Shown in pieces: positions 5,424-62,709 of a stretch of 64,000 bases of DNA (position 1 is its first letter; each line of letters starts with the position of its first letter). The notes under the pieces were generated by a model that saw nothing but the letters and a program-made list of their open reading frames with translations, was not told the DNA's origin and did not search any database. The stretch lies in contig QKIY01000033.1 in assembly GCA_003250975.1 (NCBI GenBank), positions 14,086 through 78,085 of the forward strand, written 5' to 3'. The stretch comes from Gammaproteobacteria bacterium (lineage in GTDB: Bacteria; Pseudomonadota; Gammaproteobacteria; Eutrophobiales; Eutrophobiaceae). A program made the position numbers and the translations under genes.

Positions 5424-6188
5424 TCAGTTCTCATACCGGCCATGTGGATTCCCTTTATGCCGGTTTCCGTTTTCATTCTCCTTATCGCTATTATGTTTGT
5501 TATGCCTTTCATCAGGTTCTCTATTTGCCTGATGATCGTAATTTACATTACCATGGCTATTCCTGCCGTCCGGCTTCCCAGCCCTGTCATCTGACTTCAC
5601 ATGTCTATCATCCGGTCTTCCAGTCCTGTCATCTGACTTCACATGTCTATCATCCGGTCTTCCAGTCCTGTCATCTGACTTCACATGCCTGTCATCCGGT
5701 CTTCCAGTCCTGTCATCTGACTTCACATGCCTGTCATCCGGCTTCCCAGCCCTGTCATCCCGCTTCCCATGCCTGTCATCCGATCGGTTATTCTTGTACC
5801 CCTTTTTGTGATCTTCCCTTGATCTGTAATGTTTATCACGGGAATGATGACCCTCGACAAATTTTTTCGGGAGTTTCTTCTCGCTGTATTTCTTCCAGCC
5901 TTTGTCCAGGTCTCTGCTCCTGTACCAGTGATCATGATCATACCTGTAATAATGACCACCGAAATAATAATAATCAGGGAAACCGATAACAACATAGACT
6001 CCTAGATAAGAGTCATATACCAGATCATGGCCATGATGCTTGTGCCTATAACCGTGCGCCGGTGCATGCGGCGGGGGGCCAGCATCATGATCATGATAAT
6101 ATGCATGGTGATGATGAGGCACAATTTCACATCCTGTCAGCATTAAAGCGAACATCACAAGGCCGCAAATTACGTATATCTTCTTCAT
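5424..6188 (-). CDS. His-rich, highly charged repeat lipoprotein (hypothetical, possible periplasmic metal-binding protein)
   Basis: MKKIYVICGLVMFALMLTGC is a signal peptide with lipobox. An HHHH / HxH-rich N-terminal region is followed by roughly 4.5 tandem copies of the 14-aa unit DDRHVKSDDRTGRP. Confidence 0.6.
   Translation of the reverse strand: MKKIYVICGLVMFALMLTGCEIVPHHHHAYYHDHDAGPPPHAPAHGYRHKHHGHDLVYDSYLGVYVVIGFPDYYYFGGHYYRYDHDHWYRSRDLDKGWKKYSEKKLPKKFVEGHHSRDKHYRSREDHKKGYKNNRSDDRHGKRDDRAGKPDDRHVKSDDRTGRPDDRHVKSDDRTGRPDDRHVKSDDRTGRPDDRHVKSDDRAGKPDGRNSHGNVNYDHQANREPDERHNKHNSDKENENGNRHKGNPHGRYEN
5563..5790. repeat. 42-bp tandem direct repeat (about 4.5 copies, with a 21-bp sub-periodicity) inside the lipoprotein CDS
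   Basis: ctgtcatctgacttcacatgtctatcatccggtcttccagtc is repeated head-to-tail, seen directly in the sequence. The repeat is in-frame (42 = 14 codons). Confidence 0.9.
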
Positions 6189-6317
6189 CACGATCAACAC
6201 CTCGTATTTAATTAATGGACTATTGATAATCCTATCATCCGATTATCCGGTGATAGCAAATTAGACAGGGAGACTGCGAAAAGTATCAATGCATGAAGTG
6301 TATTTTAGTGAGTCTTG

Positions 6318-7856
6318 TCACATTTCAGGCCAGTCCATGACCTTTTTATCCATTAACAGATTTAGTGTCAGGCGTATCCCGAATCCGGTTGTATCTGTAG
6401 GAACATGCGCAAGCCCGCCTTTGCGGTTACTGCTCGATAAATCCACATGAATCCACGGGACATTGTTTTTCACGAACCTCTGCAGAAAACGTGAGGCAAG
6501 AATGTGATCCATGCCCGATTCACGTGAGCATTGTTTTATATCCGCAATATTGCTCTCCAATAACTTGTCATAGTCCTCATCCATAGGAAACGGCCAGACA
6601 CGTTCCCCGCTATCCTTGCCGGCCTCTATCAATACCGGGTTAAGTGCTTCCCTGTTAGTAAAAATGCCACTGTAGGCTGTTCCTAGAGAGTAAATACAGG
6701 CTCCGGTCAAGGTTGCATAGTCAATGATTAGGGACGGTTTTTCCTTCGAGGCCAGCACCAGGGTATCGCACAGGACCATGCGGCCCTCGGCATCGGTATG
6801 GACAACTTCGATGGTCGTGCCGTCACATGCCGTTACCACATCATTCTGTTTATAGGCCTTTGGCCCGATATGATTCATGGCAAGAGCAAGCCAGCACTCT
6901 ACTGGGTAATTCACCTTGAGGCGGCTCAGGGCCAGTAATGTCCCCAGTGCAACGGCACTGCCCTGCATATCTTCATGCATGCCAAACATATAATTGGCAG
7001 GCTTCAGGTTGGTCCCTCCCGTGTCATAGCAGATCCCCTTACCCACCAGGCTGAGCTTTCTTTTAGCCGATGATCTGTTTTGAGGCCGGTATATCAATCG
7101 GACAATGCCGGCATCGGCAACGGGGCTGCCCTGGGCTACAGCGATAAAGGCGCCCGCTTTTTTCTTTTTAAGCAACTCAAGATTGTAAAACTGCAATTGC
7201 CAATCATTGACTTTGGCCAATTTTTTCACTTCTTTCAGATAGTCAGTGGGCGTCAATGAATTAGGAGGAAGCATACTGAGACTGCGCGCCAAAGCATTTC
7301 CCTCCGCTTCCGCAAAACTACGTTTGAATCCATGTGCCGTTTTGACCCCAAAAATATTTATCTTGTTCAGTACTGGCCCTTTTCTGTCTTTGCCGGACTT
7401 GAATTCAGGCATTTCGGCGACTGCTGCGAGCATCGCGGATATCACAGCTTCTGCCATGCGCTCAGCAGCATCCATATTGTAACCATATAGAATTACACCA
7501 AGCTCCTGTCCGTGAAAATCCCTATGTTGTTTTATCAGATCAGCCGCAATACCCAGTAATTCGAAGCTGCTGATTTCCGGATCGATGCAGGCGAATGCAA
7601 GATGCGTGATATTTCTATTTGGCAGGTCACAGGAGAACACGGTTTTGTTGGAAAATTTTTTATTCAGCTGCTTTCTGCGTAAATCTATAAATTCACCGTA
7701 AGGTAAGTTTTTGATGGACGGTAATGTAATGTTACCCGGCACCACTATGATCCAGTTTGCTGTTTTATCGACTCGTGCTTTATCGGGTAACTCAGGATGC
7801 TGCTGTAATTTTATTTTCATCAAATTGGTCCGGAATTTAATAATATTGCCCTGCAT
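6318..7856 (-). CDS. pepA: M17 family leucyl aminopeptidase
   Basis: NTDAEGR-type signature (HTDAEGRMVLCDTL) and GKGICYDTGG. Confidence 0.8.
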   Translation of the reverse strand: MQGNIIKFRTNLMKIKLQQHPELPDKARVDKTANWIIVVPGNITLPSIKNLPYGEFIDLRRKQLNKKFSNKTVFSCDLPNRNITHLAFACIDPEISSFELLGIAADLIKQHRDFHGQELGVILYGYNMDAAERMAEAVISAMLAAVAEMPEFKSGKDRKGPVLNKINIFGVKTAHGFKRSFAEAEGNALARSLSMLPPNSLTPTDYLKEVKKLAKVNDWQLQFYNLELLKKKKAGAFIAVAQGSPVADAGIVRLIYRPQNRSSAKRKLSLVGKGICYDTGGTNLKPANYMFGMHEDMQGSAVALGTLLALSRLKVNYPVECWLALAMNHIGPKAYKQNDVVTACDGTTIEVVHTDAEGRMVLCDTLVLASKEKPSLIIDYATLTGACIYSLGTAYSGIFTNREALNPVLIEAGKDSGERVWPFPMDEDYDKLLESNIADIKQCSRESGMDHILASRFLQRFVKNNVPWIHVDLSSSNRKGGLAHVPTDTTGFGIRLTLNLLMDKKVMDWPEM

Positions 7857-7984
7857 TATAAATGATAACGGCCTTCAGGCGTGAGCGGGCAACAATACAT
7901 TTTATAAAATAATCTCTAAACTGATATTATGAGTAAAAATAAATCCAGAACGGATTGAAGAATCTAAAATCCTATGGTAAGTCC
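7857..7984. promoter_or_regulatory. divergent intergenic region between the aminopeptidase gene and aceE (probable promoters)
   Basis: AT-rich 128-bp gap between two divergently oriented genes. No specific -10/-35 hexamers assigned. Confidence 0.3.
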
Positions 7985-10642
7985 ATGACCGATTCCGGAA
8001 AAGACATCGACCCGCAGGAAACCCAGGAATGGCTTGAGGCGCTGGAATCCATTCTTGAACGTGAAGGGGTGGATCGCGCGCATTACCTGCTTGAGCAGTT
8101 GATTGCCAAGGCGCGCAAGTCGGGCGCTTATCTGCCCTATAGTGCGAACACGGCCTACCTCAATACTATCCCCCCTTCCAAGGAGGAACGTTCGCCTGGC
8201 GACCCAGGTATCGAGTGGCGAATCCGTTCCCTAGTACGCTGGAATGCCATGGCCATGGTCGTCAAGGCCAACCGAAAGAGCAGCGAGCTCGGTGGACACA
8301 TTGCCAGCTTTGCCTCATCTGCCACGCTTTATGATGTCGGTTTCAATCATTTCTTTCGAGCCCCGACCAAAGAAAGAGGGGGCGATCTGTTGTTTGTCCA
8401 GGGACATTCGGCTCCTGGCATCTATGCCCGCGCCTACCTGACAGGCAGAATTAGCGATGAACAGATCCACAATTTCCGCCAGGAAGTCGACGGTAATGGT
8501 CTTTCCTCTTACCCACATCCTTGGTTGATGCCCGATTATTGGCAATTTCCCACCGTGTCCATGGGATTGGGTCCGTTAATGGCCATCTACCAGGCCCAGT
8601 TCATGCGCTACCTTGAGCACCGGGGCCTGTTGAATACGGAAGGCAGGAAGGTCTGGGCCTTCATCGGCGATGGTGAGATGGACGAACCAGAATCGACCGG
8701 GGGGATCGACCTGGCCGCACGTGAAGGACTGGATAACCTTATCTTTGTCATTAACTGCAACTTGCAACGACTGGATGGCCCAGTGCGGGGTAACAGCAAA
8801 ATCATCCAGGAGCTCGAGGGCCTGTTCCGTGGAGCCGGCTGGAATGTGATCAAGGTCATCTGGGGTTCATACTGGGACCCATTACTGGCGCGTGACACAC
8901 ACGGGCTGCTGCAAAAGCGCATGGAAGAGTGCGTTGACGGCGAATACCAGGCCTTCAAGGCAAATGACGGCAAGTTTGTTCGCGAATACTTTTTTGGTAA
9001 GTACCCGGAACTCAAGGCCATGGTGGCCAATATGTCAGACGAGGATATCTGGCGGCTCAATCGCGGCGGTCATGATCCACACAAGGTCTATGCTGCCTAT
9101 GCCGCGGCCATGAAACACAAGGGACAACCCACCGTTATTCTGGCGAAAACTGTCAAGGGTTACGGCATGGGCGAGGCCGGTGAAGGACAGAACATTACCC
9201 ACCAGCAGAAAAAAATGGGTGAAGCGGCGTTGAAGGCCTTTCGTGATCGTTTCAATATCCCGATCTCGGACAATGAGATTGCCGATGCACCGTTTTACAG
9301 GCCACCGGAGGATAGCCCTGAAATCACCTACCTGAAAGAACGTAGAAAGGCCCTGGGGGGATACTTTTTTGGCAATTTCAAGAAAGCAGCGCCATTACAA
9401 ATCCCTTCCATCGATATCCACAAAAAATTGCTGGAGGGCACCGGCGATCGCGAGATATCGACCACCATGGCCTTTGTCAGGATCCTCGGCGCGCTGACCA
9501 AGGATAAAAATATCGGCAAACATATCGTACCTATCGTCCCGGACGAGGCCCGCACCTTTGGTATGGAGGGTATGTTCCGGCAACTGGGGATCTACTCCTC
9601 TGTCGGTCAGCTCTATGAACCGGTGGATCACGACCAGGTCATGTATTACCGGGAAGATAAAAAAGGCCAGATCCTAGAGGAAGGTATCAATGAAGCGGGC
9701 GCCTATTCATCATGGATGGCCGCCGCAACGGCCTACCGGAATCACGGGATCTTTATGGTCCCGTTCTATATCTTTTATTCCATGTTCGGCTTTCAGCGCA
9801 TCGGTGATCTCGCCTGGGCCTCGGGTGATATGCGTTCAAGGGGTTTTTTACTAGGGGGAACCTCGGGACGTACTACCCTGGCAGGTGAAGGACTGCAACA
9901 CCAGGATGGCCACAGTCACCTGACAGCTTCCACCATCCCCAATTGTGTTTCCTATGACCCCACCTTTGCCTACGAACTGGTGGTGATTATTCAAAACGGC
10001 ATGCAGCGGATGTATGTCAATAATGAAGATGTCTTTTACTACATTACCGTGATGAATGAGAACTATGTCCATCCTGCTCTGCCGGAAGGTGTGGAAGATG
10101 GCATTGTCCGCGGTATGTACCTGTTCCAGAAAACCCCAAAAAAGAAAAAATTACATGTCAGGCTGCTGGGCTCAGGCACTATACTGCGTGAAGTCATTGC
10201 GGCTGCAGCCTTGCTTGAAGAGGATTTTTCCGTTTCCTCGGAGATATGGAGTGTCACCAGTTTTACTGAATTACGCCGAGGCGGGCTGGACGTGCAGCGC
10301 TGGAACATGCTGCACCCTGAAGAGAAACCTCGTACAAGCTATGTCGGTGAATGTCTACAGGGCGCCTGTCCCACGGTTGCCGCTACGGATTATATGAAGA
10401 CTTATGCTGACCAGATCCGGGGCTTTTTCGAAGGCCCCTATATTGTACTTGGCACGGATGGATATGGTCGCAGTGATACGCGTGAACAACTACGCAAGTT
10501 CTTTGAGATCAACCGAAATTATATTGCGCTTGCCGCACTGAAGGCCCTGGCAGATACCGGTGCCATTACCTCATCCACAATCAGCGAGGCGATCAAAAAA
10601 TATGAGATTGATCCCGACAAGCCCAACCCGGTAACAGTGTAA
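7985..10642 (+). CDS. aceE: pyruvate dehydrogenase E1 component (homodimeric type)
   Basis: N-terminal DIDPQETQEWLEALESILEREGVDRAHYLLEQL, about 885 aa, AceE-like throughout. The start could alternatively be the TTG at 7955. Confidence 0.9.
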   Translation: MTDSGKDIDPQETQEWLEALESILEREGVDRAHYLLEQLIAKARKSGAYLPYSANTAYLNTIPPSKEERSPGDPGIEWRIRSLVRWNAMAMVVKANRKSSELGGHIASFASSATLYDVGFNHFFRAPTKERGGDLLFVQGHSAPGIYARAYLTGRISDEQIHNFRQEVDGNGLSSYPHPWLMPDYWQFPTVSMGLGPLMAIYQAQFMRYLEHRGLLNTEGRKVWAFIGDGEMDEPESTGGIDLAAREGLDNLIFVINCNLQRLDGPVRGNSKIIQELEGLFRGAGWNVIKVIWGSYWDPLLARDTHGLLQKRMEECVDGEYQAFKANDGKFVREYFFGKYPELKAMVANMSDEDIWRLNRGGHDPHKVYAAYAAAMKHKGQPTVILAKTVKGYGMGEAGEGQNITHQQKKMGEAALKAFRDRFNIPISDNEIADAPFYRPPEDSPEITYLKERRKALGGYFFGNFKKAAPLQIPSIDIHKKLLEGTGDREISTTMAFVRILGALTKDKNIGKHIVPIVPDEARTFGMEGMFRQLGIYSSVGQLYEPVDHDQVMYYREDKKGQILEEGINEAGAYSSWMAAATAYRNHGIFMVPFYIFYSMFGFQRIGDLAWASGDMRSRGFLLGGTSGRTTLAGEGLQHQDGHSHLTASTIPNCVSYDPTFAYELVVIIQNGMQRMYVNNEDVFYYITVMNENYVHPALPEGVEDGIVRGMYLFQKTPKKKKLHVRLLGSGTILREVIAAAALLEEDFSVSSEIWSVTSFTELRRGGLDVQRWNMLHPEEKPRTSYVGECLQGACPTVAATDYMKTYADQIRGFFEGPYIVLGTDGYGRSDTREQLRKFFEINRNYIALAALKALADTGAITSSTISEAIKKYEIDPDKPNPVTV

Positions 10643-49616: not shown

Positions 49617-50426
49617 ATGACTTTCGGGGTTGAGATAGCGAGTGCCTCTCATATCGGGAAAAAGCGTCCCCATAACGAGGACAGCATCCTGACGGACAAG
49701 GAGATCCGCCTGTTTGTCCTAGCGGATGGCATGGGGGGCTACAAGGCCGGCGAGGTTGCCAGCGCCATTGCCGTCACTACCATCTATCAGGTTATCAATG
49801 ATGAACGGCCGCAAGGTCCTACTGACAAGACAGTAGGAGACGAAACCGAATTGATAAGGAGGGCAATTAATCAAGCTAATTCAAATATTTATAATATGGC
49901 TAAAACTAACCGCGATTGTCGCGGCATGGGCACGACGGTGGTTATGGGGTGGATCTGTAATGACAGGATGGTTATCGGTAACGTGGGTGATTCCCGAGTC
50001 TACCGCCTAAGGGCAAAAAAACTGGAGCAGATTACCAAGGACCATTCCCTGATCCAGGAATTGATCGATCGAGGCATGTATACGGCGGAAGAGGCCAATG
50101 CCAAGATGCCAAAGAATCTGGTAACCCGTGCATTGGGACTAGATACCAACGTTGATGTGGATGTATATGAAGATCTAGTGCTGCCGAAAGATATCTATCT
50201 GCTGTGCTCAGACGGATTAAATGATATGGTAAATGATGAAGAAATTCACTTAACCCTAGGTAAATATAGTGCTAATCTTGCACAGGCAGCTGACAAGCTG
50301 GTGCAACTCGCTAACCATCACGGCGGCAAGGACAATATCTCCGTGGTGTTGATTAGGATCAAAAATAACAATGGATCCGCTGATCAGGGTGGGGTTTTGA
50401 AAAGGGTATTTAACAGATTTTCTTGA
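49617..50426 (+). CDS. PP2C-family Ser/Thr protein phosphatase
   Basis: SHIGKKRPHNEDS...LADGMGG...CSDGL motifs (Stp1/PppA-like). Confidence 0.8.
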   Translation: MTFGVEIASASHIGKKRPHNEDSILTDKEIRLFVLADGMGGYKAGEVASAIAVTTIYQVINDERPQGPTDKTVGDETELIRRAINQANSNIYNMAKTNRDCRGMGTTVVMGWICNDRMVIGNVGDSRVYRLRAKKLEQITKDHSLIQELIDRGMYTAEEANAKMPKNLVTRALGLDTNVDVDVYEDLVLPKDIYLLCSDGLNDMVNDEEIHLTLGKYSANLAQAADKLVQLANHHGGKDNISVVLIRIKNNNGSADQGGVLKRVFNRFS

Positions 50427-50447
50427 TGTAAGGGGTCAATAAAGACA

Positions 50448-51158
50448 ATGGCAAAACTAGTTCTGACCATGAACGGTGCCGTTCAAGGCGAATACGAACT
50501 GAATCAGGAACGGATGAGTATAGGCCGCAAGGCTGAGAATGATATCCAGATCGATAATCTCGCTGTCAGCGGCAAACATGCCCTGATTATTACCATTCTG
50601 GACGATTCTTTCCTCGAGGACCTTGGCAGTACCAATGGCACCTATGTTAATGGAAAACTGGTTAAGAAACACGCCCTTAAAGACGGTGATGTGATTGCCA
50701 TTGGCAAGCACGAACTGAAATATATCAATGAAAATGCCACATCGAATGATGATGAGTTTGAAAAGACCATGATCATTAAGCCGGGATCGGCAAGCGCCGC
50801 CGTTGCCGCTGCGCAGGCTGCGGAAAAGGCCGGCGCCAAGGCGGAACAGGTCCCCCTCGCATCGACCAACGTGCCGAGCGGCATGCCGCTCGCAAGATTG
50901 ACCGTGCTCAACGGTCCCATAGCCGGCAAGGAACTGGAATTAACCAAGGCCCTTGTTACCCTTGGGAAACCCGGCACCCAGGTTGCTGTTATTTCGCGCA
51001 GGCCCCAGGGGTATTTCCTGACACACATTGAAAGTGATGGTGATGGTAAACGCTATCCAGTCGTTAATGGTGAACCGATCGGCCCCAAGGCCTACCAACT
51101 CAAGAATTCTGACATGATTGAGCTTGCTGGTATCAAGATGGAATTTACCACCAGCTAG
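50448..51158 (+). CDS. FHA-domain protein (N-terminal canonical FHA plus C-terminal degenerate FHA-like domain)
   Basis: The first domain has SIGRK...I...VSGKHA...GSTNGTYVNG. The C-terminal region (VAVISRRPQGYFLTH...VVNGEPI) resembles a second, degenerate FHA. Confidence 0.7.
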   Translation: MAKLVLTMNGAVQGEYELNQERMSIGRKAENDIQIDNLAVSGKHALIITILDDSFLEDLGSTNGTYVNGKLVKKHALKDGDVIAIGKHELKYINENATSNDDEFEKTMIIKPGSASAAVAAAQAAEKAGAKAEQVPLASTNVPSGMPLARLTVLNGPIAGKELELTKALVTLGKPGTQVAVISRRPQGYFLTHIESDGDGKRYPVVNGEPIGPKAYQLKNSDMIELAGIKMEFTTS

Positions 51159-53681: not shown

Positions 53682-53817
53682 ATTATCTCCTTGGACGAAA
53701 TTAAAGAGCCGTGCGAAAGCCAAATAATAACAGAATTACATTACTGTTCAAAAATACATCTCGTTTGACCGGACGCGACCTGCAAAAACCATACATTAAT
53801 AATATATCCCCGTTGTG

Positions 53818-54825
53818 CTAAAACAACAGGTATTCGAAAAAGGCGTCACTCCACTGCCCCCTGCGCTCCAGGGTAAATCGTGTCAGTTCACTGAGAATAC
53901 GATTCGAATTCCTGCGCAGGGTCTCGTAGTCCGGAAGGCTGGTCCGGTTCAGTTCATCCAGGGTAGCAGGGGTTGTTGTAACAAGTTTCTCCCGCACCTC
54001 TTTCCTGTTCATCTGTTCCATAAAGAATTCATAGGGGGCAATAAATTCCCCAAAGCAGCTATCATCATTCATTCGATAGACAAACTCTATTCGCTGCATC
54101 ATGGTGAGGTGCAGGTGTTTATGCAACCAGCCAATCTTGTCCTGTGTTTCCTTGCTGCATTCCCCCAGCAAGAAGATCAGGGCTGCAAACATGGGGATAC
54201 GTCCGTTCCTGAGCTTTACATTGCGCATGTACCAGCTGTCTATCGGGTCATGTGACAAATCAAATTGATGCCAGCTACAGTAGGAGCGGAGATAACGTAT
54301 GAGATCATTCAGCAGATAGACCCATTCCTTACGCTGGTCATTGGCAAGAAACCCGGCAGCGTAACGTTCGAGCAGCGCATATCTGAGATTGTTGAACTCC
54401 ACATGACCGTATACCGGCGTTGAATCAAGCAGGATTTGCAGTCGCTTGCCGAACACATCCTTGTCATCCGCCACCTGCCCCAGGGTACTGTAATCACAGA
54501 TCTGTTCCTGGCTCGCTGGCGTCGAATAGATTCCGGACGACTTCGGCATGGGCAGACCAAGCGGCTCGAGTGCGTTCCAGACGTCCTGCATGGCACACCC
54601 TGATCGCCGCTTATCCTTAACAGCCTCATGCTTAATCAGGACGATCAGATCACAATCCGAATGGCCCATTCCCTCCAGCCTCCCAATTGAACCTGATGGT
54701 GCAACAATCAGCACATCCGGATTCCTGTCCGCCACGGGCTTGAGCAGGTCCTCCATCTGTTTGAGAGTTTTAACAGACCACTGGCGCGCGTAATTAAGGG
54801 TCGGGTAACCGGACAAGTCTAGCAT
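53818..54825 (-). CDS. stand-alone GlnE/GlnD-like nucleotidyltransferase-domain protein
   Basis: Pol-beta-type NTase motif PSGSIGRLEGMGHSDCDLIVLI (G[GS]x9-SDxDL), closest in pattern to the GlnE/GlnD G.LGR.EL..SD.DL signature. The remaining roughly 270 aa are helical. Confidence 0.5.
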   Translation of the reverse strand: MLDLSGYPTLNYARQWSVKTLKQMEDLLKPVADRNPDVLIVAPSGSIGRLEGMGHSDCDLIVLIKHEAVKDKRRSGCAMQDVWNALEPLGLPMPKSSGIYSTPASQEQICDYSTLGQVADDKDVFGKRLQILLDSTPVYGHVEFNNLRYALLERYAAGFLANDQRKEWVYLLNDLIRYLRSYCSWHQFDLSHDPIDSWYMRNVKLRNGRIPMFAALIFLLGECSKETQDKIGWLHKHLHLTMMQRIEFVYRMNDDSCFGEFIAPYEFFMEQMNRKEVREKLVTTTPATLDELNRTSLPDYETLRRNSNRILSELTRFTLERRGQWSDAFFEYLLF

Positions 54826-54835
54826 GAGAATTATT

Positions 54836-55840
54836 TTATTGGGGTAATGGATAATGTTCCATCAGATAACACAGACAATCCTTGCGAATTACTTCAGTAT
54901 CCAGGGTGATCATGGCAGGGATAATCGGCTTGCTCGTTACCAGCCTGCTATCAATGATTGAGAAATAGTCCTGGCTGACGTCAGTGCCTTGCTCATTTGT
55001 GACACTTAACGGGATTTCTTTACTACCAGCGATCTTGCCAATGGTGGTGCCCATCGGCAGTTCCCGAAAGTTGAAGTATTCGATCTCGCTATCCAGCCAC
55101 AGATCATAATCCTGGTGATCAAATCCGAACCGGTATTCACCGGGGATTTTAACGGTGGCAACGGTGTGATAAAGATCGATATCCCTGTTACCCAGTTGGC
55201 GATGGGGAAATTGATCCAGGTGCAGACAGGCATTAACAAATTCACAGGCATGATCAATCCCGCTAATGTCACCGGATAATCCACACTCTACGGTTACTGC
55301 CGGACACAGATCGGCAAATGCCATGCTCTGCACACCCAGGGGACGAATAAAATAGACCATGGTACGGGAGAACAAAATTCCAAGCTGGAGAAAATCGTTT
55401 TCCGTTTTATTGACACAGGCATAATGAGGATTCTTACCGGTGTTGTTATGAATATCGATACTTATGAACACATCACGACATTTCATCTCGTCCTGAATCT
55501 GCTGCATCATCCGGTATTCCGGCGTATCGCCGTTTCCCTGCCATATGCGATTGAAATCGGCCTGACCATCAAGAAAGCGTTTACCATAACGTGCTGCCTG
55601 AACATTGCCGATAAAAACAGAAAGAGAACGTGGCAGTTTACGTTCTGTGTAATCTAGTAATAATTTTCGCACTGCCTCCCAGCCGGTATGCTCATTACCA
55701 TGCAATAACACGGAAATAAACACCGGTTGCTTTCTGCGGCCCTGAAGATGGATCAGAGTCGGGCCCGATAACCTGCTGTATAACTGTTCGGCCGGTAACA
55801 GCAGGATATCGTCATTGATTGAATCAAGGACCGTCAGCAT
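54836..55840 (-). CDS. AstE/AspA-family (succinylglutamate desuccinylase/aspartoacylase-like) zinc deacylase
   Basis: LLHGNEHTG zinc-binding motif and the downstream DFNR motif. Confidence 0.6.
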   Translation of the reverse strand: MLTVLDSINDDILLLPAEQLYSRLSGPTLIHLQGRRKQPVFISVLLHGNEHTGWEAVRKLLLDYTERKLPRSLSVFIGNVQAARYGKRFLDGQADFNRIWQGNGDTPEYRMMQQIQDEMKCRDVFISIDIHNNTGKNPHYACVNKTENDFLQLGILFSRTMVYFIRPLGVQSMAFADLCPAVTVECGLSGDISGIDHACEFVNACLHLDQFPHRQLGNRDIDLYHTVATVKIPGEYRFGFDHQDYDLWLDSEIEYFNFRELPMGTTIGKIAGSKEIPLSVTNEQGTDVSQDYFSIIDSRLVTSKPIIPAMITLDTEVIRKDCLCYLMEHYPLPQ

Positions 55841-57256
55841 TTACACATCCCACTCGTGAACCGGGGCCCCCTTATGCTGGTGTTCAAGGTAGGCCTTGCT
55901 CAGTTGATTCATGTCCTTGCCATATTTCTCAACCCACCGTCGCTGCCAGACTGCGCCATTTTGCCCGCTGGTAATGCGTGCCTCTATCACGGAAAGGTAT
56001 TTTTTCCTGCTGTCATCCGCTATGCCGAGTTTCAGCAACCCGTTATCTGCTGCTGTCAATAGTTGCCCCTGAATCAGCTCATCTACCGGATATTGTTGTC
56101 CATCCAGCCAGTGCAAAGATGACCTTAGGCCATAACGTGCAGCATTGTAGAAATTTTGCCTGACAATCGGAAACTCAAGCAGTTGTTCAGGAGGCTGTGT
56201 CATTGTGGCGGTATAGTGCAATAGCCCCCAGTAAAATGCCGCGTTGGCAATCATGTCGATGATTGAGGGTCCTGAAGGAACGACGCGATTTTCAATCCTC
56301 AGGTGAATATTACCCTCTCTGTCAAAACCTACTAATGGCCGGTTCCAGCGCCAGATTGTCCCGTTATGCAATCTTAGATGATACAGCTCGGCTTCATTTA
56401 GCTTGCTGTTCAAGGGGATCAGGATGGCATAGTTGTTAAGATTTTCCTCAAAACAGGAAAATAGGGAACCCCTCACATAATCATGTCCAAAGGTAACCCG
56501 CTTGTTTTTTTCCAGGCCAACGTCCACTGACTGTTCAAACAAGCGAATACGTGTTTCATCCCAAAGATCACAACCAAATAGGTAGGGTGAGTTAGCGCTG
56601 GCGGCAACAAGTGGAGCAGAAATAACCTGTGCCGCATTATACGTTCGCACAGCCTCATCCTGTGCCACCTGATAATGAATCTGGAGGGACGTAGTAGCCG
56701 CTTCAAGCATGACATCATGATGTACGGTATTTAGATGGTCCTTGCCACGGATATTCAGGGTCAGCGGGACACCATTACGCATTGCCAGTACCTGCTCATT
56801 CAATGCGCGGTAACGCTGACTGGTTGACATATGTTGGACGGTGAGTTCCCCGTCGACAATGCCCGGATGGATCCCGATGGCCATGACATCCGCGTCCAGG
56901 CTACCTGCTACCTGGTAACAGCGCTCCCAGGTCGCTGACAACTCGGCATGCAGTTTGTCCAGGGCGTCATTTTTCAGCACCTGTGGCTCAACATTGATTT
57001 CAAAATTGAATTGCGCCAGTTCATGCACGACCTTGGGATGGTTCAATGTGTGGAGAAATTTTTCATTTAAAGGTACAGGAACTGCTTCTCTGTTTACCAA
57101 CCAGGCCTCTACTTCAAATCCACCTGTATTATGGGCACAGGCAAATCGATTATCGCGAAAATACTGTTGCAGGATACTGGTCTCGGATCGCAGATATTCC
57201 TGGAAAGCACTGAAATCATGCTTGGTGAACTTACTGGTTGGTATTTCCTGCCCCAT
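55841..57256 (-). CDS. glutamate-cysteine-ligase-family (GshA-like) carboxylate-amine ligase
   Basis: 471 aa. Segments LQIHYQV and LRIENRVVPSGPSIIDMIANAAFYWGL parallel E. coli GshA ISGVHYNF and [30 protein letters not shown]. Its stop abuts the start of the deacylase gene. Confidence 0.55.
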   Translation of the reverse strand: MGQEIPTSKFTKHDFSAFQEYLRSETSILQQYFRDNRFACAHNTGGFEVEAWLVNREAVPVPLNEKFLHTLNHPKVVHELAQFNFEINVEPQVLKNDALDKLHAELSATWERCYQVAGSLDADVMAIGIHPGIVDGELTVQHMSTSQRYRALNEQVLAMRNGVPLTLNIRGKDHLNTVHHDVMLEAATTSLQIHYQVAQDEAVRTYNAAQVISAPLVAASANSPYLFGCDLWDETRIRLFEQSVDVGLEKNKRVTFGHDYVRGSLFSCFEENLNNYAILIPLNSKLNEAELYHLRLHNGTIWRWNRPLVGFDREGNIHLRIENRVVPSGPSIIDMIANAAFYWGLLHYTATMTQPPEQLLEFPIVRQNFYNAARYGLRSSLHWLDGQQYPVDELIQGQLLTAADNGLLKLGIADDSRKKYLSVIEARITSGQNGAVWQRRWVEKYGKDMNQLSKAYLEHQHKGAPVHEWDV

Positions 57257-57325
57257 AATTGATCAACATTAATTTTATTCGATTGTAGCGGTGAAGCCGG
57301 ATGATTCAAATAGTATCATTTCAAT

Positions 57326-58087
57326 ATGATTCGAGGCGTATTACTTGATCTCAGTGGTGTTCTTTATATAGAAGACTGTCGTCTGCCGGGCGCGAAAACA
57401 GCAATTAACAAACTGATCCAGGCCGGCCTGCCGGTACGATATATCACCAATACGACCCGCAAGACCACTAGAACCGTACTCAGACAAATGACAGATATGC
57501 AGTTCTATATAAAACCTGATGAACTGTTTACAGCATCCGTTGCCGCCAGGAACTATCTCAAACAGCATGGCCTGAGGCCGTATCTGCTGATACATCCTGC
57601 ACTGGAGGAAGAATTTGCGGATTTCGATCAAGCAGGAGCTATTAATGCAGTCCTAATCGGAGACGCGGCGCAAGGTTTTACCTATGCACGAATGAACAGG
57701 GCATTCCGTTATCTTATGGACGGCGCAGAATTTCTTGCCCTGGGTATCAACCGCTATTTCAGGGAGTCGGATGGCCTCAGTCTGGATGCCGGGCCGTTTG
57801 TACAGGCATTGGAATATGCAACAGGAAGGCAGGCGAATGTAATCGGCAAACCTTCAGCTGATTTCTATATGAGTGCAGTCGGCAGCATGGGATGCGATGC
57901 GAGCGATGTCATGATGGTAGGCGATGATGTGGAGTCGGATGTGAACGGCGCCATCAGGGCCGGCCTGCAGGGTCTGCTGGTAATGACAGGGAAATTCACT
58001 GCTGAAGACGAAGGAAAGATCCTTCCGGGCGGTCTGTGCTGTGCCGATATCAGCGAGGCAGTAGAAACTATCCTGCAACTGGCCTGA
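57326..58087 (+). CDS. HAD-superfamily subfamily IIA hydrolase
   Basis: LLDLSGVL (DxD-type motif I), IITNTT and a C-terminal GDD motif. Confidence 0.65.
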   Translation: MIRGVLLDLSGVLYIEDCRLPGAKTAINKLIQAGLPVRYITNTTRKTTRTVLRQMTDMQFYIKPDELFTASVAARNYLKQHGLRPYLLIHPALEEEFADFDQAGAINAVLIGDAAQGFTYARMNRAFRYLMDGAEFLALGINRYFRESDGLSLDAGPFVQALEYATGRQANVIGKPSADFYMSAVGSMGCDASDVMMVGDDVESDVNGAIRAGLQGLLVMTGKFTAEDEGKILPGGLCCADISEAVETILQLA

Positions 58088-59033: not shown

Positions 59034-59621
59034 TTATTGTTCCGGGTTTAGCATCTGCAGTAGTGACTGGATCTGTGCCAGCCGTTGCAAGGGGTCATCA
59101 GTCTCCAGCAAGGCTTGTTTTTCATCGAGGTCCAGTGGCAATAACTCGGCCAGGCGGCAACTGACCCAGCCAGCATCCAAGTATTTTTCCGGCCCGGTCA
59201 GGTGGGAGAGGTCAAATTTCTCGGCGATCTGCCGGAGCAGGTCCGAGAGTAAGTGGAATTCAACCGGCAACTCCTCATCTTCATTCTCATCCATGACCTC
59301 GACATCACCTTCCAGCAGGCCGTTTGGCCGCAGCCGTTTTTCGATGATCTGGAAACGCCTGCCGCCCTTGACGGTGATCCGGAGTACGCCATCTTCGTCC
59401 TGGCCCCAGTCAATAATATGGGCAAAGGTCCCGATAGTGTGGCATTCGGCTGGCTCGCCAACCTCTTTCCCTTCACGAATCAAACAGATACCAAAGCAAC
59501 TCTCTGAACGTAAAGACTCACTAACCATGTCTAGATAACGGCTCTCAAATACCCTCAGGGGCAGCAGGCCCTCCGGGAAGAGGACGGTATTGAGAGGGAA
59601 AAGAGGCAGATTTTTCAGCAT
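59034..59621 (-). CDS. Lon N-terminal (LON substrate-binding) domain protein
   Basis: LPLFPLNTVLFPEGLLPLRVFESRYLDMV is the hallmark of the Lon N-domain. About 195 aa with no ATPase or protease domains. Confidence 0.7.
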   Translation of the reverse strand: MLKNLPLFPLNTVLFPEGLLPLRVFESRYLDMVSESLRSESCFGICLIREGKEVGEPAECHTIGTFAHIIDWGQDEDGVLRITVKGGRRFQIIEKRLRPNGLLEGDVEVMDENEDEELPVEFHLLSDLLRQIAEKFDLSHLTGPEKYLDAGWVSCRLAELLPLDLDEKQALLETDDPLQRLAQIQSLLQMLNPEQ

Positions 59622-60976
59622 GTTTCCTGTAGTCGGCTGATCAGTTTCTGGTGAATCCCGCCAAAGGAGCCATTACTCATAATGACGATCTGATCACCGG
59701 GCTGGGTCATATTGGCAACCGCCTCAACGATGTCATCAATACTGGAATATACCACCCGCTTCTCCCCCAGGCTGCTGGTGGCTTGATCGATATCCCACTG
59801 AATATTTGTAGGCCGAAACAAAAGCACCTGGTCGGCCAGGGCAAAAGCGGAGGCCAGTGTGGCCTTGTGCACCCCCTGGCGCATGGTATTGGAGCGCGGC
59901 TCCATGATAGCAATGATCCGGCGCTGTCCTGCCCGGGCACGCAAGGCCTCCAGGGTTACCCGGATGGCCGTGGGATGGTGGGCAAAGTCATCATAGACCG
60001 AAATCCCGTTAATTGTTTCTAAATGTTCCAATCTTCGCCTAACATTCACGAAACTCGCTAATGCCTCACACACTTCGCCGGCTGTTATACCAACATGCCC
60101 AGCAGCAGCAGCGGTGGCTAGGGCATTCAATGCATTATGCCTGCCATACAGGTCCCACCGGATGATCCCTCCCGGCTGGCCGTCCACTACGAGCTCGAAA
60201 TCACTGAAATCATCCTGCAAGGGTTTAGCGCGCCAACGGGCCTTGTCTTCGCCAAAATATTCAACCGGAGTCCAGCAGCCCTCTGCCAGGAGGCGCTGGA
60301 TCTCGGGGTCATTGGCTTGGGCGATGATCAGACCATGCCGGGGTATAGTCCGTATCAGGCGATGAAATTCGCGCCTGATATCGGCAATATCAGCGAAGAT
60401 GTCTGCATGATCGAACTCGATATTATTAATAATGAGCGTCCGTGGGTGATAATGGATAAATTTTGAGCGCTTATCAAAAAACGCCGTATCATATTCATCG
60501 GCCTCGACTACAAAGTATTTCTCCTGACCCAGTCGGGCCGATACACCGAAGTTTCCCGGCACGCCACCAATCAAAAAACCGGGGCTCAGACCCTCCACCT
60601 CCAGCGTCCAGGCCAGCATAGAGGCCGTGGTCGTCTTGCCGTGGGTGCCCGCAACAGCAAGGACATGGCGGCCTGCCAGGACATTCTCATACAGCCATTG
60701 CGGGCCAGAGATATAACGCAGACCTGCATCCAGCATGTGTTCCACGCAGGGGTTTCCTCGAGACATGGCATTGCCCACAATCACCAGGTCGGGCGCCGGC
60801 TCCAGATGCATCGGGTCATAACCCTCGCAGAGGATGATCCCCTGCTCCATTAACTGGGTACTCATGGGGGGATAAACATTGCTATCCGAACCACTGACCT
60901 CATGACCCAATTCGCGTGCCAGCAGGGCCAGGCCGCCCATGAAGGTGCCACAGACACCGAGGATGTGAATTTTCAT
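59615..60976 (-). CDS. mpl: UDP-N-acetylmuramate:L-alanyl-gamma-D-glutamyl-meso-DAP ligase
   Basis: MKIHILGVCGTFMGGLALLAR N-terminus matches Mpl, and the Mur-ligase domain has GTHGKTTT. The 82-aa N-terminal extension in the ORF track is rejected. Confidence 0.85.
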   Translation of the reverse strand: MKIHILGVCGTFMGGLALLARELGHEVSGSDSNVYPPMSTQLMEQGIILCEGYDPMHLEPAPDLVIVGNAMSRGNPCVEHMLDAGLRYISGPQWLYENVLAGRHVLAVAGTHGKTTTASMLAWTLEVEGLSPGFLIGGVPGNFGVSARLGQEKYFVVEADEYDTAFFDKRSKFIHYHPRTLIINNIEFDHADIFADIADIRREFHRLIRTIPRHGLIIAQANDPEIQRLLAEGCWTPVEYFGEDKARWRAKPLQDDFSDFELVVDGQPGGIIRWDLYGRHNALNALATAAAAGHVGITAGEVCEALASFVNVRRRLEHLETINGISVYDDFAHHPTAIRVTLEALRARAGQRRIIAIMEPRSNTMRQGVHKATLASAFALADQVLLFRPTNIQWDIDQATSSLGEKRVVYSSIDDIVEAVANMTQPGDQIVIMSNGSFGGIHQKLISRLQETC

Positions 60977-61497
60977 TGCGACTCCAGGATGGGTAACAGC
61001 ACTGAAATCAGCGTGGAGGTAATCACGATGTAGATTATGGCAAACACGATTCCAAAACCCAATGTGGTCGTCAGAGCATGGCGCAGGATATGGCCCATCA
61101 CCAGGATGTTCCAGAACAACAAGGCAAGATAGCCCAGCACTGCCACAGCCTGTAACAGGCCACCGGGTTGTGTGAGCAGTCCACTGTAAAGTAGCGGTAT
61201 GGCAAACAGGCTGATGATACAACCCGTACCGAAGATCGCAGTTAGCGTCTGCTGCAGGCGTTCAAAGTGACGGTTCAATTGCAGGATAACTAATGTGATT
61301 AGAGCAACCAGTGCAAGTTCCACCATACTGCTCAGCAGGGCTTGTTTCGGGGTTGCAGAAACAAGCATGAGCAGGCTGCTTATCAGCAGATAGGCCACTG
61401 CCGATACAGCCAATAATTCCGGGGAGCCGGGCAAGTCCTGAGGCTTTCTGCGCAGCAGGCAGATCTCGAAAAAAAACTTGAAGAGAGTGGTCAGCAT
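60973..61497 (-). CDS. hypothetical inner-membrane protein (about 5 TM)
   Basis: 174 aa and hydrophobic throughout. Its stop overlaps the mpl start (ATGA). Confidence 0.45.
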   Translation of the reverse strand: MLTTLFKFFFEICLLRRKPQDLPGSPELLAVSAVAYLLISSLLMLVSATPKQALLSSMVELALVALITLVILQLNRHFERLQQTLTAIFGTGCIISLFAIPLLYSGLLTQPGGLLQAVAVLGYLALLFWNILVMGHILRHALTTTLGFGIVFAIIYIVITSTLISVLLPILESQ

Positions 61498-61545: not shown

Positions 61546-62709
61546 TTACAAACGGCCCCGGTAATGGGAATAATCAAACTCTTTTTCCAGCCTTATGCGG
61601 CCAGACTCATCTAGGGCGTATATCGCCGGCAGGTTGATGCCATTGAACATGTTGGCCTTCACCATCATGTAGGCGCCAACATTGGCGATGATCACCTTGC
61701 TGCCGATTGTGAGCTCATGATCAAAGTAATAATCACCGAACAGGTCACCGCTCAGGCAACTCGCCCCTGCTATGCGGTAGCGATACTTGCCCTGACTTGA
61801 TTCCTGTAGCACCAGCGGCCGGTACTGGTATTCAAATACTTCCGGCAGGTGATTTATGGTTGTATCGACCACGGCAATGGTCCTGTCCCCGGATTCAAAC
61901 AGATCGATTACGCTTGCGACCAGGTAACCGGCCGTGCCGACTATTGCCTTGCCCGGTTCGAAAAAGACCTCGAGGTCATAGTCTTGCTGTAATTGCCTGA
62001 GCCTGTCGTCCAGGGGTGCAAGGTCAGATAATTGATCAAATAAATAACCCCCGCCTAGGTTAAGCCATTCGACGCGATGAAACAGTTCAGGATTGCTATT
62101 TATAAGCTGATCCATACTGGCCACCAGCTCGCCAAGGTCCCTTGATTCACAGTTACTGTGAATATGCAGGCCGCTAAGGCCAGCGGGGAGTGCCTTTCCA
62201 TCACCGAGCAGCGACATGGGGACCCCCAGCTTGGAGGCGGGGCGGCAAGGATCGTAGCGTTCATCGCCCGCAAACGATAGCGCTGGATTGACTCGCAGGC
62301 CGCAACGGAGATGGGCCAGGGCAAGATGATAATGATGCCACTGGGAGAGGGAATTAAAACTCACATAGCGGCAGTGTTTCGCGATCAGTTCGAGGTCCGC
62401 CGGCCGGATCCCGGGACTTGTCAGATGGATGCTGCCCCTGCCCCCCAGGACTTCATCTGCCAGGCGGCTTTCAAAGGCCGAACTGACCGAAAAACCGTCG
62501 ACAAACGCGGCGATTTCTGCAAGCAGGTCAGAAAAACTCAGTGCCTTGAGGGAATAAAGGATTCTACAGCCGCTTGCCTGCCTGAACGAGGCGAGGATCG
62601 CCAGTTTTTCCCTGATTGCCTTCTCATCATAGACAAAGGCCGGGGTCTTCAGGGCCGCATCATTCCAGAGCGCCAGCAAGTGGTCATTGAATTGCTGTGA
62701 AACGGTCAT
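61546..62709 (-). CDS. nspC: fold-III PLP decarboxylase, carboxynorspermidine/carboxyspermidine decarboxylase-like
   Basis: 387 aa with N-terminal TPAFVYDE..., a length and architecture closer to NspC than to LysA. Confidence 0.5.
   Translation of the reverse strand: MTVSQQFNDHLLALWNDAALKTPAFVYDEKAIREKLAILASFRQASGCRILYSLKALSFSDLLAEIAAFVDGFSVSSAFESRLADEVLGGRGSIHLTSPGIRPADLELIAKHCRYVSFNSLSQWHHYHLALAHLRCGLRVNPALSFAGDERYDPCRPASKLGVPMSLLGDGKALPAGLSGLHIHSNCESRDLGELVASMDQLINSNPELFHRVEWLNLGGGYLFDQLSDLAPLDDRLRQLQQDYDLEVFFEPGKAIVGTAGYLVASVIDLFESGDRTIAVVDTTINHLPEVFEYQYRPLVLQESSQGKYRYRIAGASCLSGDLFGDYYFDHELTIGSKVIIANVGAYMMVKANMFNGINLPAIYALDESGRIRLEKEFDYSHYRGRL

Follow-up and report, generated by a model that had tools for sequence, protein, structure and literature searches.

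A widespread gene pair for a putative carboxylate-amine ligase and an AstE/AspA-family hydrolase, with a clade-restricted nucleotidyltransferase neighbour

The window analysed here, a stretch of 64,000 nucleotides (nt) from contig QKIY01000033.1 of a gammaproteobacterium of the Eutrophobiaceae (assembly GCA_003250975.1), contains three consecutive genes on the minus strand. The first (55841–57256) encodes a putative ATP-dependent carboxylate-amine ligase of 471 residues with a glutamate-cysteine ligase (GCL)/YbdK fold, the second (54836–55840) a zinc amidohydrolase of the AstE/AspA family (M14-like) of 334 residues, and the third (53818–54825) a stand-alone nucleotidyltransferase (NTase) of the GlnE/DrrA fold of 335 residues. 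An earlier analysis of the letters alone, referred to below as the sequence-only reading, had described the three as a candidate ligation system under adenylylation control, lying divergent from a HAD-IIA hydrolase gene. Its three gene positions, their strand and the divergence from the HAD gene all proved to be as claimed, and the motifs HGNE, DFNR and GSIGRLEGMGHSDCDL were found in the sequence. The ligase and hydrolase genes abut with a gap of 0 nt and are translationally coupled in the window, the only correction being that the ligase stop codon is TAA (55843–55841) and not TGA; the 10-nt gap between the hydrolase stop codon and the ATG of the NTase gene (54826–54835) was verified. Since all three proteins have many homologues, the three open reading frames (ORFs) are genuine genes rather than chance ORFs, and the start codons of the homologues line up with those of all three. 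The comparison across genomes identified the ligase and the hydrolase as the two core components of a conserved module; the NTase gene is a clade-restricted 3′ neighbour outside it.

Linkage was examined by scanning 185,579 species-representative genomes with an alignment of the ligase, which gave at least 589 matches, and the best 80 loci were kept for neighbourhood analysis, 74 of them having room downstream for the hydrolase to be assessed. The hydrolase gene lies directly downstream of the ligase gene in 72 of these 74 loci, with a median gap of approximately 23 nt. The 80 loci include sulfur-oxidising gammaproteobacteria (Sedimenticola, Thiogranum, Thiohalomonadaceae, Thiomargarita, and symbionts of Solemya and of tubeworms) as well as betaproteobacteria (Nitrosomonas, Sulfurirhabdus), Thermithiobacillus (Acidithiobacillia), Acidiferrobacterales and others. 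When 1.84 billion representatives (50% level) were searched exhaustively, 2,324 relatives of the ligase came up at E ≤ 0.001, of which 569 were at E ≤ 1e-30. Among the best 150, which were inspected for variants, ligase and AstE_AspA domains were found fused in a single chain of 823–831 residues (P0344, P0349, P0358 and P0446), and these fusions represent four or more distinct clusters at 50% identity. Residues 486–812 of P0344 are 50% identical to the full-length window hydrolase, with HGNE, DFNR, DVHNNTG and TVECG intact, and this fusion was found on two independent contigs (L175/L176, positions 6001–8484); the hydrolase part of P0446, at 37% identity, also keeps the motifs. P0359 was likewise listed with the single-chain fusions.

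Furthermore, the pairing persists at 38% ligase identity in a subfamily of CBS-fused ligases (P0465, P0471, P0477 and P0483; loci L172–L174). These proteins, of approximately 610–648 residues, carry a C-terminal CBS pair, and the AstE/AspA gene, longer at 430 residues, lies 15 nt downstream, with a GT4 glycosyltransferase gene upstream. CBS domains bind adenosyl ligands; by analogy, these variants suggest control by such ligands in some lineages. No third universally linked partner was found in the 80 loci. The ligase and hydrolase genes thus form a widespread, self-contained two-gene module, and this half of the earlier proposal is strongly supported and extended by the linkage in 72 of 74 loci, the fusions and the CBS-fused subfamily.

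The ligase scored above threshold against the Pfam family GCS2 (36.5 bits, cutoff 21). Against the NCBIfam equivalogs for GCL, YbdK and EgtA, the best score was 40.9 bits for a cutoff of 176, the others giving 13–40 bits for cutoffs of 332–425. Sequence and profile searches of the PDB were both without a match, and the protein was placed by structure prediction only. The AlphaFold model (predicted local distance difference test score, pLDDT, 85.6; predicted template-modelling score, pTM, 0.90) is closest to YbdK and to plant or yeast GCL, and after these to GshA, Dop, PafA and glutamine synthetases. The predicted structure has the glutamine synthetase (GS)/GCL-type fold of the GCS2 superfamily, and the earlier assignment to this family of GS-fold proteins was right. 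The Mg2+/ATP signature of the superfamily, GhExE (PMC2588565), is represented by G46-F-E48-V-E50 and is invariant across 16 orthologues. On the strength of the fold match and the invariant signature, the protein is a catalytically plausible ATP-dependent carboxylate-amine ligase.

The nearness of the model to YbdK and to plant or yeast GCL, together with the name ‘glutamate--cysteine ligase’ that homologues bear in some sources, would be in line with a housekeeping gshA accompanied by an unrelated or accessory peptidase. We regard this as unlikely, since the equivalog scores as a whole (13–41 bits) fall far short of their cutoffs (176–425), the PDB holds no match at the sequence level even with profiles, and no gshB-type domain is encoded within 8 kb of the locus. 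The earlier caution against assuming glutathione synthesis was sensible. Moreover, the window-type ligase has an AstE-type hydrolase as its obligate partner, encoded alongside or in the same chain, and some members carry CBS domains as well. These features set it apart from YbdK and plant-type GCL, and such obligate pairing and fusion is foreign to any known gshA. It is also about 100 residues longer than YbdK, and lies far below the cutoff of every curated equivalog among the YbdK/GCS2 ligases and plant-type GCL.

The second gene had been read as a zinc deacylase of the AstE/AspA family, and the Pfam match to AstE_AspA_cat (47.4 bits, cutoff 25; E = 2.2e-12) and the presence of the motifs bear this out. 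Across 22 orthologues, H47 and E50 (HGNE), D95, N97 and R98 (DxNR), D129 and H131, and E185 (TxECG) are invariant. In the alignment, the zinc ligands (H47, E50 and H131), the carboxylate-binding R98 and the catalytic E185 are therefore all conserved, as in AstE and aspartoacylase (ASPA), which share the H-x-x-E...H zinc ligands, the substrate-binding Arg of DxNR and the catalytic Glu. The protein aligns with AstE (PDB 1yw4) at HGNE, DMNR and TLELG, the segment with the Glu being weakly aligned. It lies below equivalog level, with 28.9 bits against 305.65 for astE and 23.1 against 180 for aspartoacylase and, unlike AstE, it is encoded outside an ast operon, with the ligase as its partner in place of enzymes of arginine catabolism. 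Each of the three proteins of the locus can be placed in a known superfamily, and none reaches the cutoff of any curated equivalog. For the ligase and the hydrolase, the database names (‘glutamate--cysteine ligase’ and ‘M14 peptidase / succinylglutamate desuccinylase’) are probably wrong in detail.

The NTase gave only sub-threshold matches to sequence profiles (DUF294, 14.9 bits, cutoff 21; no GlnE match for the window protein), with weak GlnE and DUF294 matches for a distant homologue (L160). The GlnE-type assignment was right all the same, and structure prediction alone could confirm it: the model, of high confidence (pLDDT 94), has three structural neighbours that stand out and a clearly GlnE/DrrA-like fold, with both a Pol-beta NTase core and a GlnE-type helical domain. 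The helical domain is of the GlnD/GlnE/DUF294_C type, which is HEPN-like (PMC3710099). Within the motif G[SG]x(9-13)DxD, the residues G45, S46, D57 and D59 do not vary, and position 134 keeps an acidic residue. Most probably the protein is active as a nucleotidyl (AMP) transferase. It shares the core, the helical domain and the G-S...D-x-D motif with GlnE, GlnD and the AMPylation domain of Legionella DrrA; unlike GlnE, which has two tandem NTase domains (AT/AR), it is a single unit of 335 residues, and no glnA, glnB or PII linkage was seen in the NTase neighbourhoods examined.

The sequence-only reading had likened an NTase beside a GS-fold ligase to GlnE acting on glutamine synthetase, with the ligase or its product being nucleotidylated. 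A form of this idea in which the NTase modifies the ligase, the hydrolase or their product as an on/off switch in the trio clade only is weighed here against the distribution of the gene. No NTase was found near the ligase orthologues in any of the 80 loci, either by tblastn or by profile hidden Markov model (E ≤ 1, with a positive control that worked), nor was a HAD gene found near the ligase in these 80 genome loci. Reciprocally, neither ligase nor deacylase was found near the distant NTases (0 of 60 loci). The trio was seen only in about six closely related contigs, at some of the loci with 64–82% NTase identity (window/L001, L089, L090, L169 and L171). The HAD gene adjoins the ligase gene in the window, L089, L090, L170 and L171. 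Of these, L170 is the decisive case: it encodes a ligase 63% identical to that of the window, closer than some trio ligases, and shares the upstream synteny of the window (NspC-like, Mpl, LonN-domain, FAA hydrolase, HAD, ligase, hydrolase); the NTase gene is absent from it. There is also a disparity in family size, as the NTase homologues make up only about 100 clusters and the ligase clusters number in the thousands.

A comparison of trio (n = 7) with non-trio (n = 81) ligases showed differences only at P6, H42, M125, D245, N323 and W343, which are clade markers; residue 323, within a conserved R-I-E-x-R strand, is Asn in the trio clade and His in 72 of the 81 other orthologues. No trio-specific Tyr, Ser or Thr acceptor was found on the ligase in this comparison, a weak test because an acceptor could be a universally conserved residue.

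The relatives of the NTase are mostly encoded apart from any ligase. Homologues at 64–69% identity lie convergent with msrA, without the ligase, in 17 metagenome loci and in the genomes P0022, P0044 and P0048; the sister NTases at 64–66% identity are of this kind. In convergent NTase/msrA pairs of the sister clade (L006, L003, L008 and L091–L109), the stop codons are approximately 10–30 nt apart, which is probably synteny only. At 28–50% identity, about 24 loci have a His_Phos_1 gene immediately before the NTase gene, and His_Phos_1 and NTase are fused in P0091; at 23–27% identity, the upstream gene encodes an HD-domain protein in 17 loci. Both kinds of partner are Pfam-supported and mark a difference from GlnE, GlnD and DrrA. 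Recurrent NTase partners were noted in loci L108–L168 (metagenome), L004 and L005. HIT-like (12 loci) and 2H-like (8 loci) neighbours were set aside, being motif readings only with no Pfam or PADLOC match. In GlnD, an HD domain takes off the nucleotide added by the NTase, and the NTase/HD pairing recalls this arrangement; the NTase family with its phosphoesterase partners (His_Phos_1, HD) looks like a nucleotidylation writer/eraser module.

With the linkage absent from 80 of 80 loci and from the syntenic L170, and with no trio-specific acceptor, the three-gene arrangement is not general but restricted to one clade. Its conservation across genomes, the lack of which the sequence-only reading had itself named as grounds for rejection, did not hold up in the neighbourhood analysis, and a dedicated three-gene system is not supported. 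The adenylylation-control hypothesis is largely refuted, the occurrence of a GlnE-like protein beside a GS-fold enzyme is mostly coincidence, and it is improbable that the NTase was recruited in the trio clade to switch the module on and off. We infer instead that the NTase takes no part in the module: it would be a catalytically competent member of an independent family, usually partnered by phosphoesterases, and in the trio lineage the operon would simply have picked it up at its 3′ end.

The NTase also matches component A of the PADLOC system PDC-M70 over its full length (the window protein at E = 1.3e-19, the HD-linked homologues at 2e-51), PDC-M70 being a candidate defence system only. 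The partner proteins of the NTase homologues gave zero PDC-M70 matches in PADLOC, the other components of the system were not identified, and the window gene stands among housekeeping genes rather than in a defence island. A literature search on PDC-M70 found nothing relevant.

We consider it fairly probable (roughly 65%) that the ligase and the hydrolase act together as a two-enzyme module of which the NTase is not an integral part. Enzymes of the GCL fold activate a carboxylate as its acyl phosphate, in the typical case the gamma-carboxylate of Glu, and then join it to an amine, and enzymes of the AstE/ASPA type hydrolyse N-acyl-Glu or N-acyl-Asp, holding the carboxylates of the amino acid through the conserved Arg. 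By extension, the ligase would use ATP to phosphorylate a carboxylate, which it would then link to an amine, and the hydrolase would cut the N-acyl-amino-acid bond in the resulting compound or in its immediate precursor. The likely candidate for the shared compound, which would be made by the ligase and cleaved by the hydrolase, is a (di)carboxylic amino acid or short peptide bearing a gamma-glutamyl or related N-acyl group; the two enzymes may jointly set its level. From the folds, catalytic motifs, linkage statistics and fusions, which were observed or computed, we infer a shared substrate and the direction of flux.

For the fused forms, the best functional analogy is E. coli Gss (glutathionylspermidine synthetase/amidase), in which the synthetase and the amidase for one amide are fused. 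Amide synthetase and amidase are genetically coupled or fused in both cases; however, Gss is built from ATP-grasp and CHAP folds and the module from GCL-fold and AstE/M14-like enzymes, and the analogy is functional only. That the enzymes of the module make and break one and the same amide, of the gamma-glutamyl type, is the likeliest mechanism but is put forward tentatively, at a probability well short of even. Alternatively, the two may act consecutively, the hydrolase freeing the substrate of the ligase.

Another use of such a pair would be a cycle of modification at the C-terminus of a protein or peptide, as with Pup and PafA–Dop or with RimK, the M14-like enzyme serving as a trimming carboxypeptidase. 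We find this very unlikely, as neither a small ORF that is conserved nor a gene for a candidate target lies beside the pair and the ligase is far nearer to YbdK and GCL, which act on small molecules, than to PafA.

Several observations weigh against a self-contained pair that acts on one compound. A fusion would fit consecutive steps just as well. The NTase gene lies 3–12 nt from the hydrolase gene in four loci, and within about 25 nt in L090, despite divergence of the ligase down to 59% identity; a neighbour present by accident alone would not be expected to stay beside the pair for so long. MurU is the only additional neighbour of the pair to recur: its gene (329 bits against an NCBIfam cutoff of 250) immediately precedes the ligase gene on the same strand in 52 of the 80 loci, often 7–60 nt away, and an AmgK-like gene lies further upstream in 30 of the 80. 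However, the amgK-murU adjacency is missing in the betaproteobacterial, Acidithiobacillia and Acidiferrobacterales loci, and a single radiation of gammaproteobacteria could have inherited it as synteny.

Co-transcription of the module with amgK-murU, genes of peptidoglycan-sugar salvage, would be the rule in many gammaproteobacteria, and its compound may therefore belong to murein salvage. The fusion in L175 sits after amgK-murU in a region that also encodes a YkuD L,D-transpeptidase, a D-amino-acid transaminase-like protein, PBP5 and RlpA, and Mpl (687 bits) is encoded three genes from the ligase in the clade of the window. The Mpl ORF of the window (59034–61222, minus strand) is listed too long, with a TTG start at 61222, as the match to the Mpl profile starts near 60985; it overlaps the downstream ORF for a LON-substrate-binding-domain protein by 7 nt (59615–59621), which suggests translational coupling. 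Loci without MurU have heterogeneous and unrelated genes upstream, encoding HPP, DJ-1, DUF1552, MltF-like, S9 peptidase and LysR proteins and, further, rubrerythrin, PPK2, UvrD and shikimate dehydrogenase. Because MurU is missing in the betaproteobacterial and Acidithiobacillia loci and the upstream genes there are unrelated, the putative link to the cell wall is a lead rather than a result.

A role of the module in the salvage of murein peptides or of the envelope is accordingly doubtful. The more specific proposal is, if anything, slightly more so, namely that the pair represents an unrecognised branch of peptidoglycan salvage that remakes and/or trims a murein peptide with a gamma-glutamyl link, for which the gamma-D-Glu-meso-DAP bond is an example, or else a similar amide of the envelope. 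If it were true, the peptide joined by Mpl to recycled UDP-MurNAc would be supplied or edited by the module. An NspC-like (carboxynorspermidine decarboxylase) gene (61546–62709, minus strand, in the window; 1533–2705 in L170) was rejected as a clue to the substrate, its score of 292 bits being below the cutoff of 409 and the gene being syntenic in the clade of the window only.

In the divergent intergenic region (57257–57325, 69 nt), the sequence TTGAAT-16-TACAAT at 57309–57282 on the minus strand resembles a promoter and would serve the ligase operon, and a hairpin with an 8-bp stem and a poor T-tract covers the stop codon of the NTase gene (53809–53830, minus strand), a weak terminator-like end of the unit. 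The downstream HU-like gene has a separate promoter-like site at 53751–53724. The site before the ligase gene is a consensus match only, and the number of promoter-like and terminator-like sites in the region does not exceed shuffle expectation, so that the operon boundaries are suggestive only. A scan of the window with Rfam gave no RNA family at the gathering threshold, and hence no riboswitch or leader. The divergent HAD-IIA gene (57326–58087, plus strand; TIGR01458, 245 bits, cutoff 176) is a matter of clade-specific synteny only. Elsewhere in the window (49617–51158, plus strand), a PP2C-type protein phosphatase (269 residues) is followed directly by an FHA-domain protein (236 residues), a Ser/Thr phospho-signalling pair with no kinase in the stretch examined.

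Within the literature that could be searched, nothing relevant was found on the pairing of such a ligase with an AstE-type protein or on its association with MurU or AmgK, and the module, with its fusion, CBS and amgK-murU contexts, is apparently undescribed. The finding that the adjacency of a GlnE-like and a GS-fold protein is mostly coincidental stops an over-interpretation from spreading. The NTase belongs to a family of stand-alone GlnE/DrrA-fold enzymes that overlaps a candidate phage-defence family. The module is prominent in sulfur-oxidising and nitrifying proteobacteria, animal symbionts among them, and its substrate can be approached by experiment through the fusions and through the operon context with amgK-murU. 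What is left standing is an enzyme couple that occurs widely, is misannotated and lends itself to experiment, together with an orphan family of GlnE/DrrA-like NTases.

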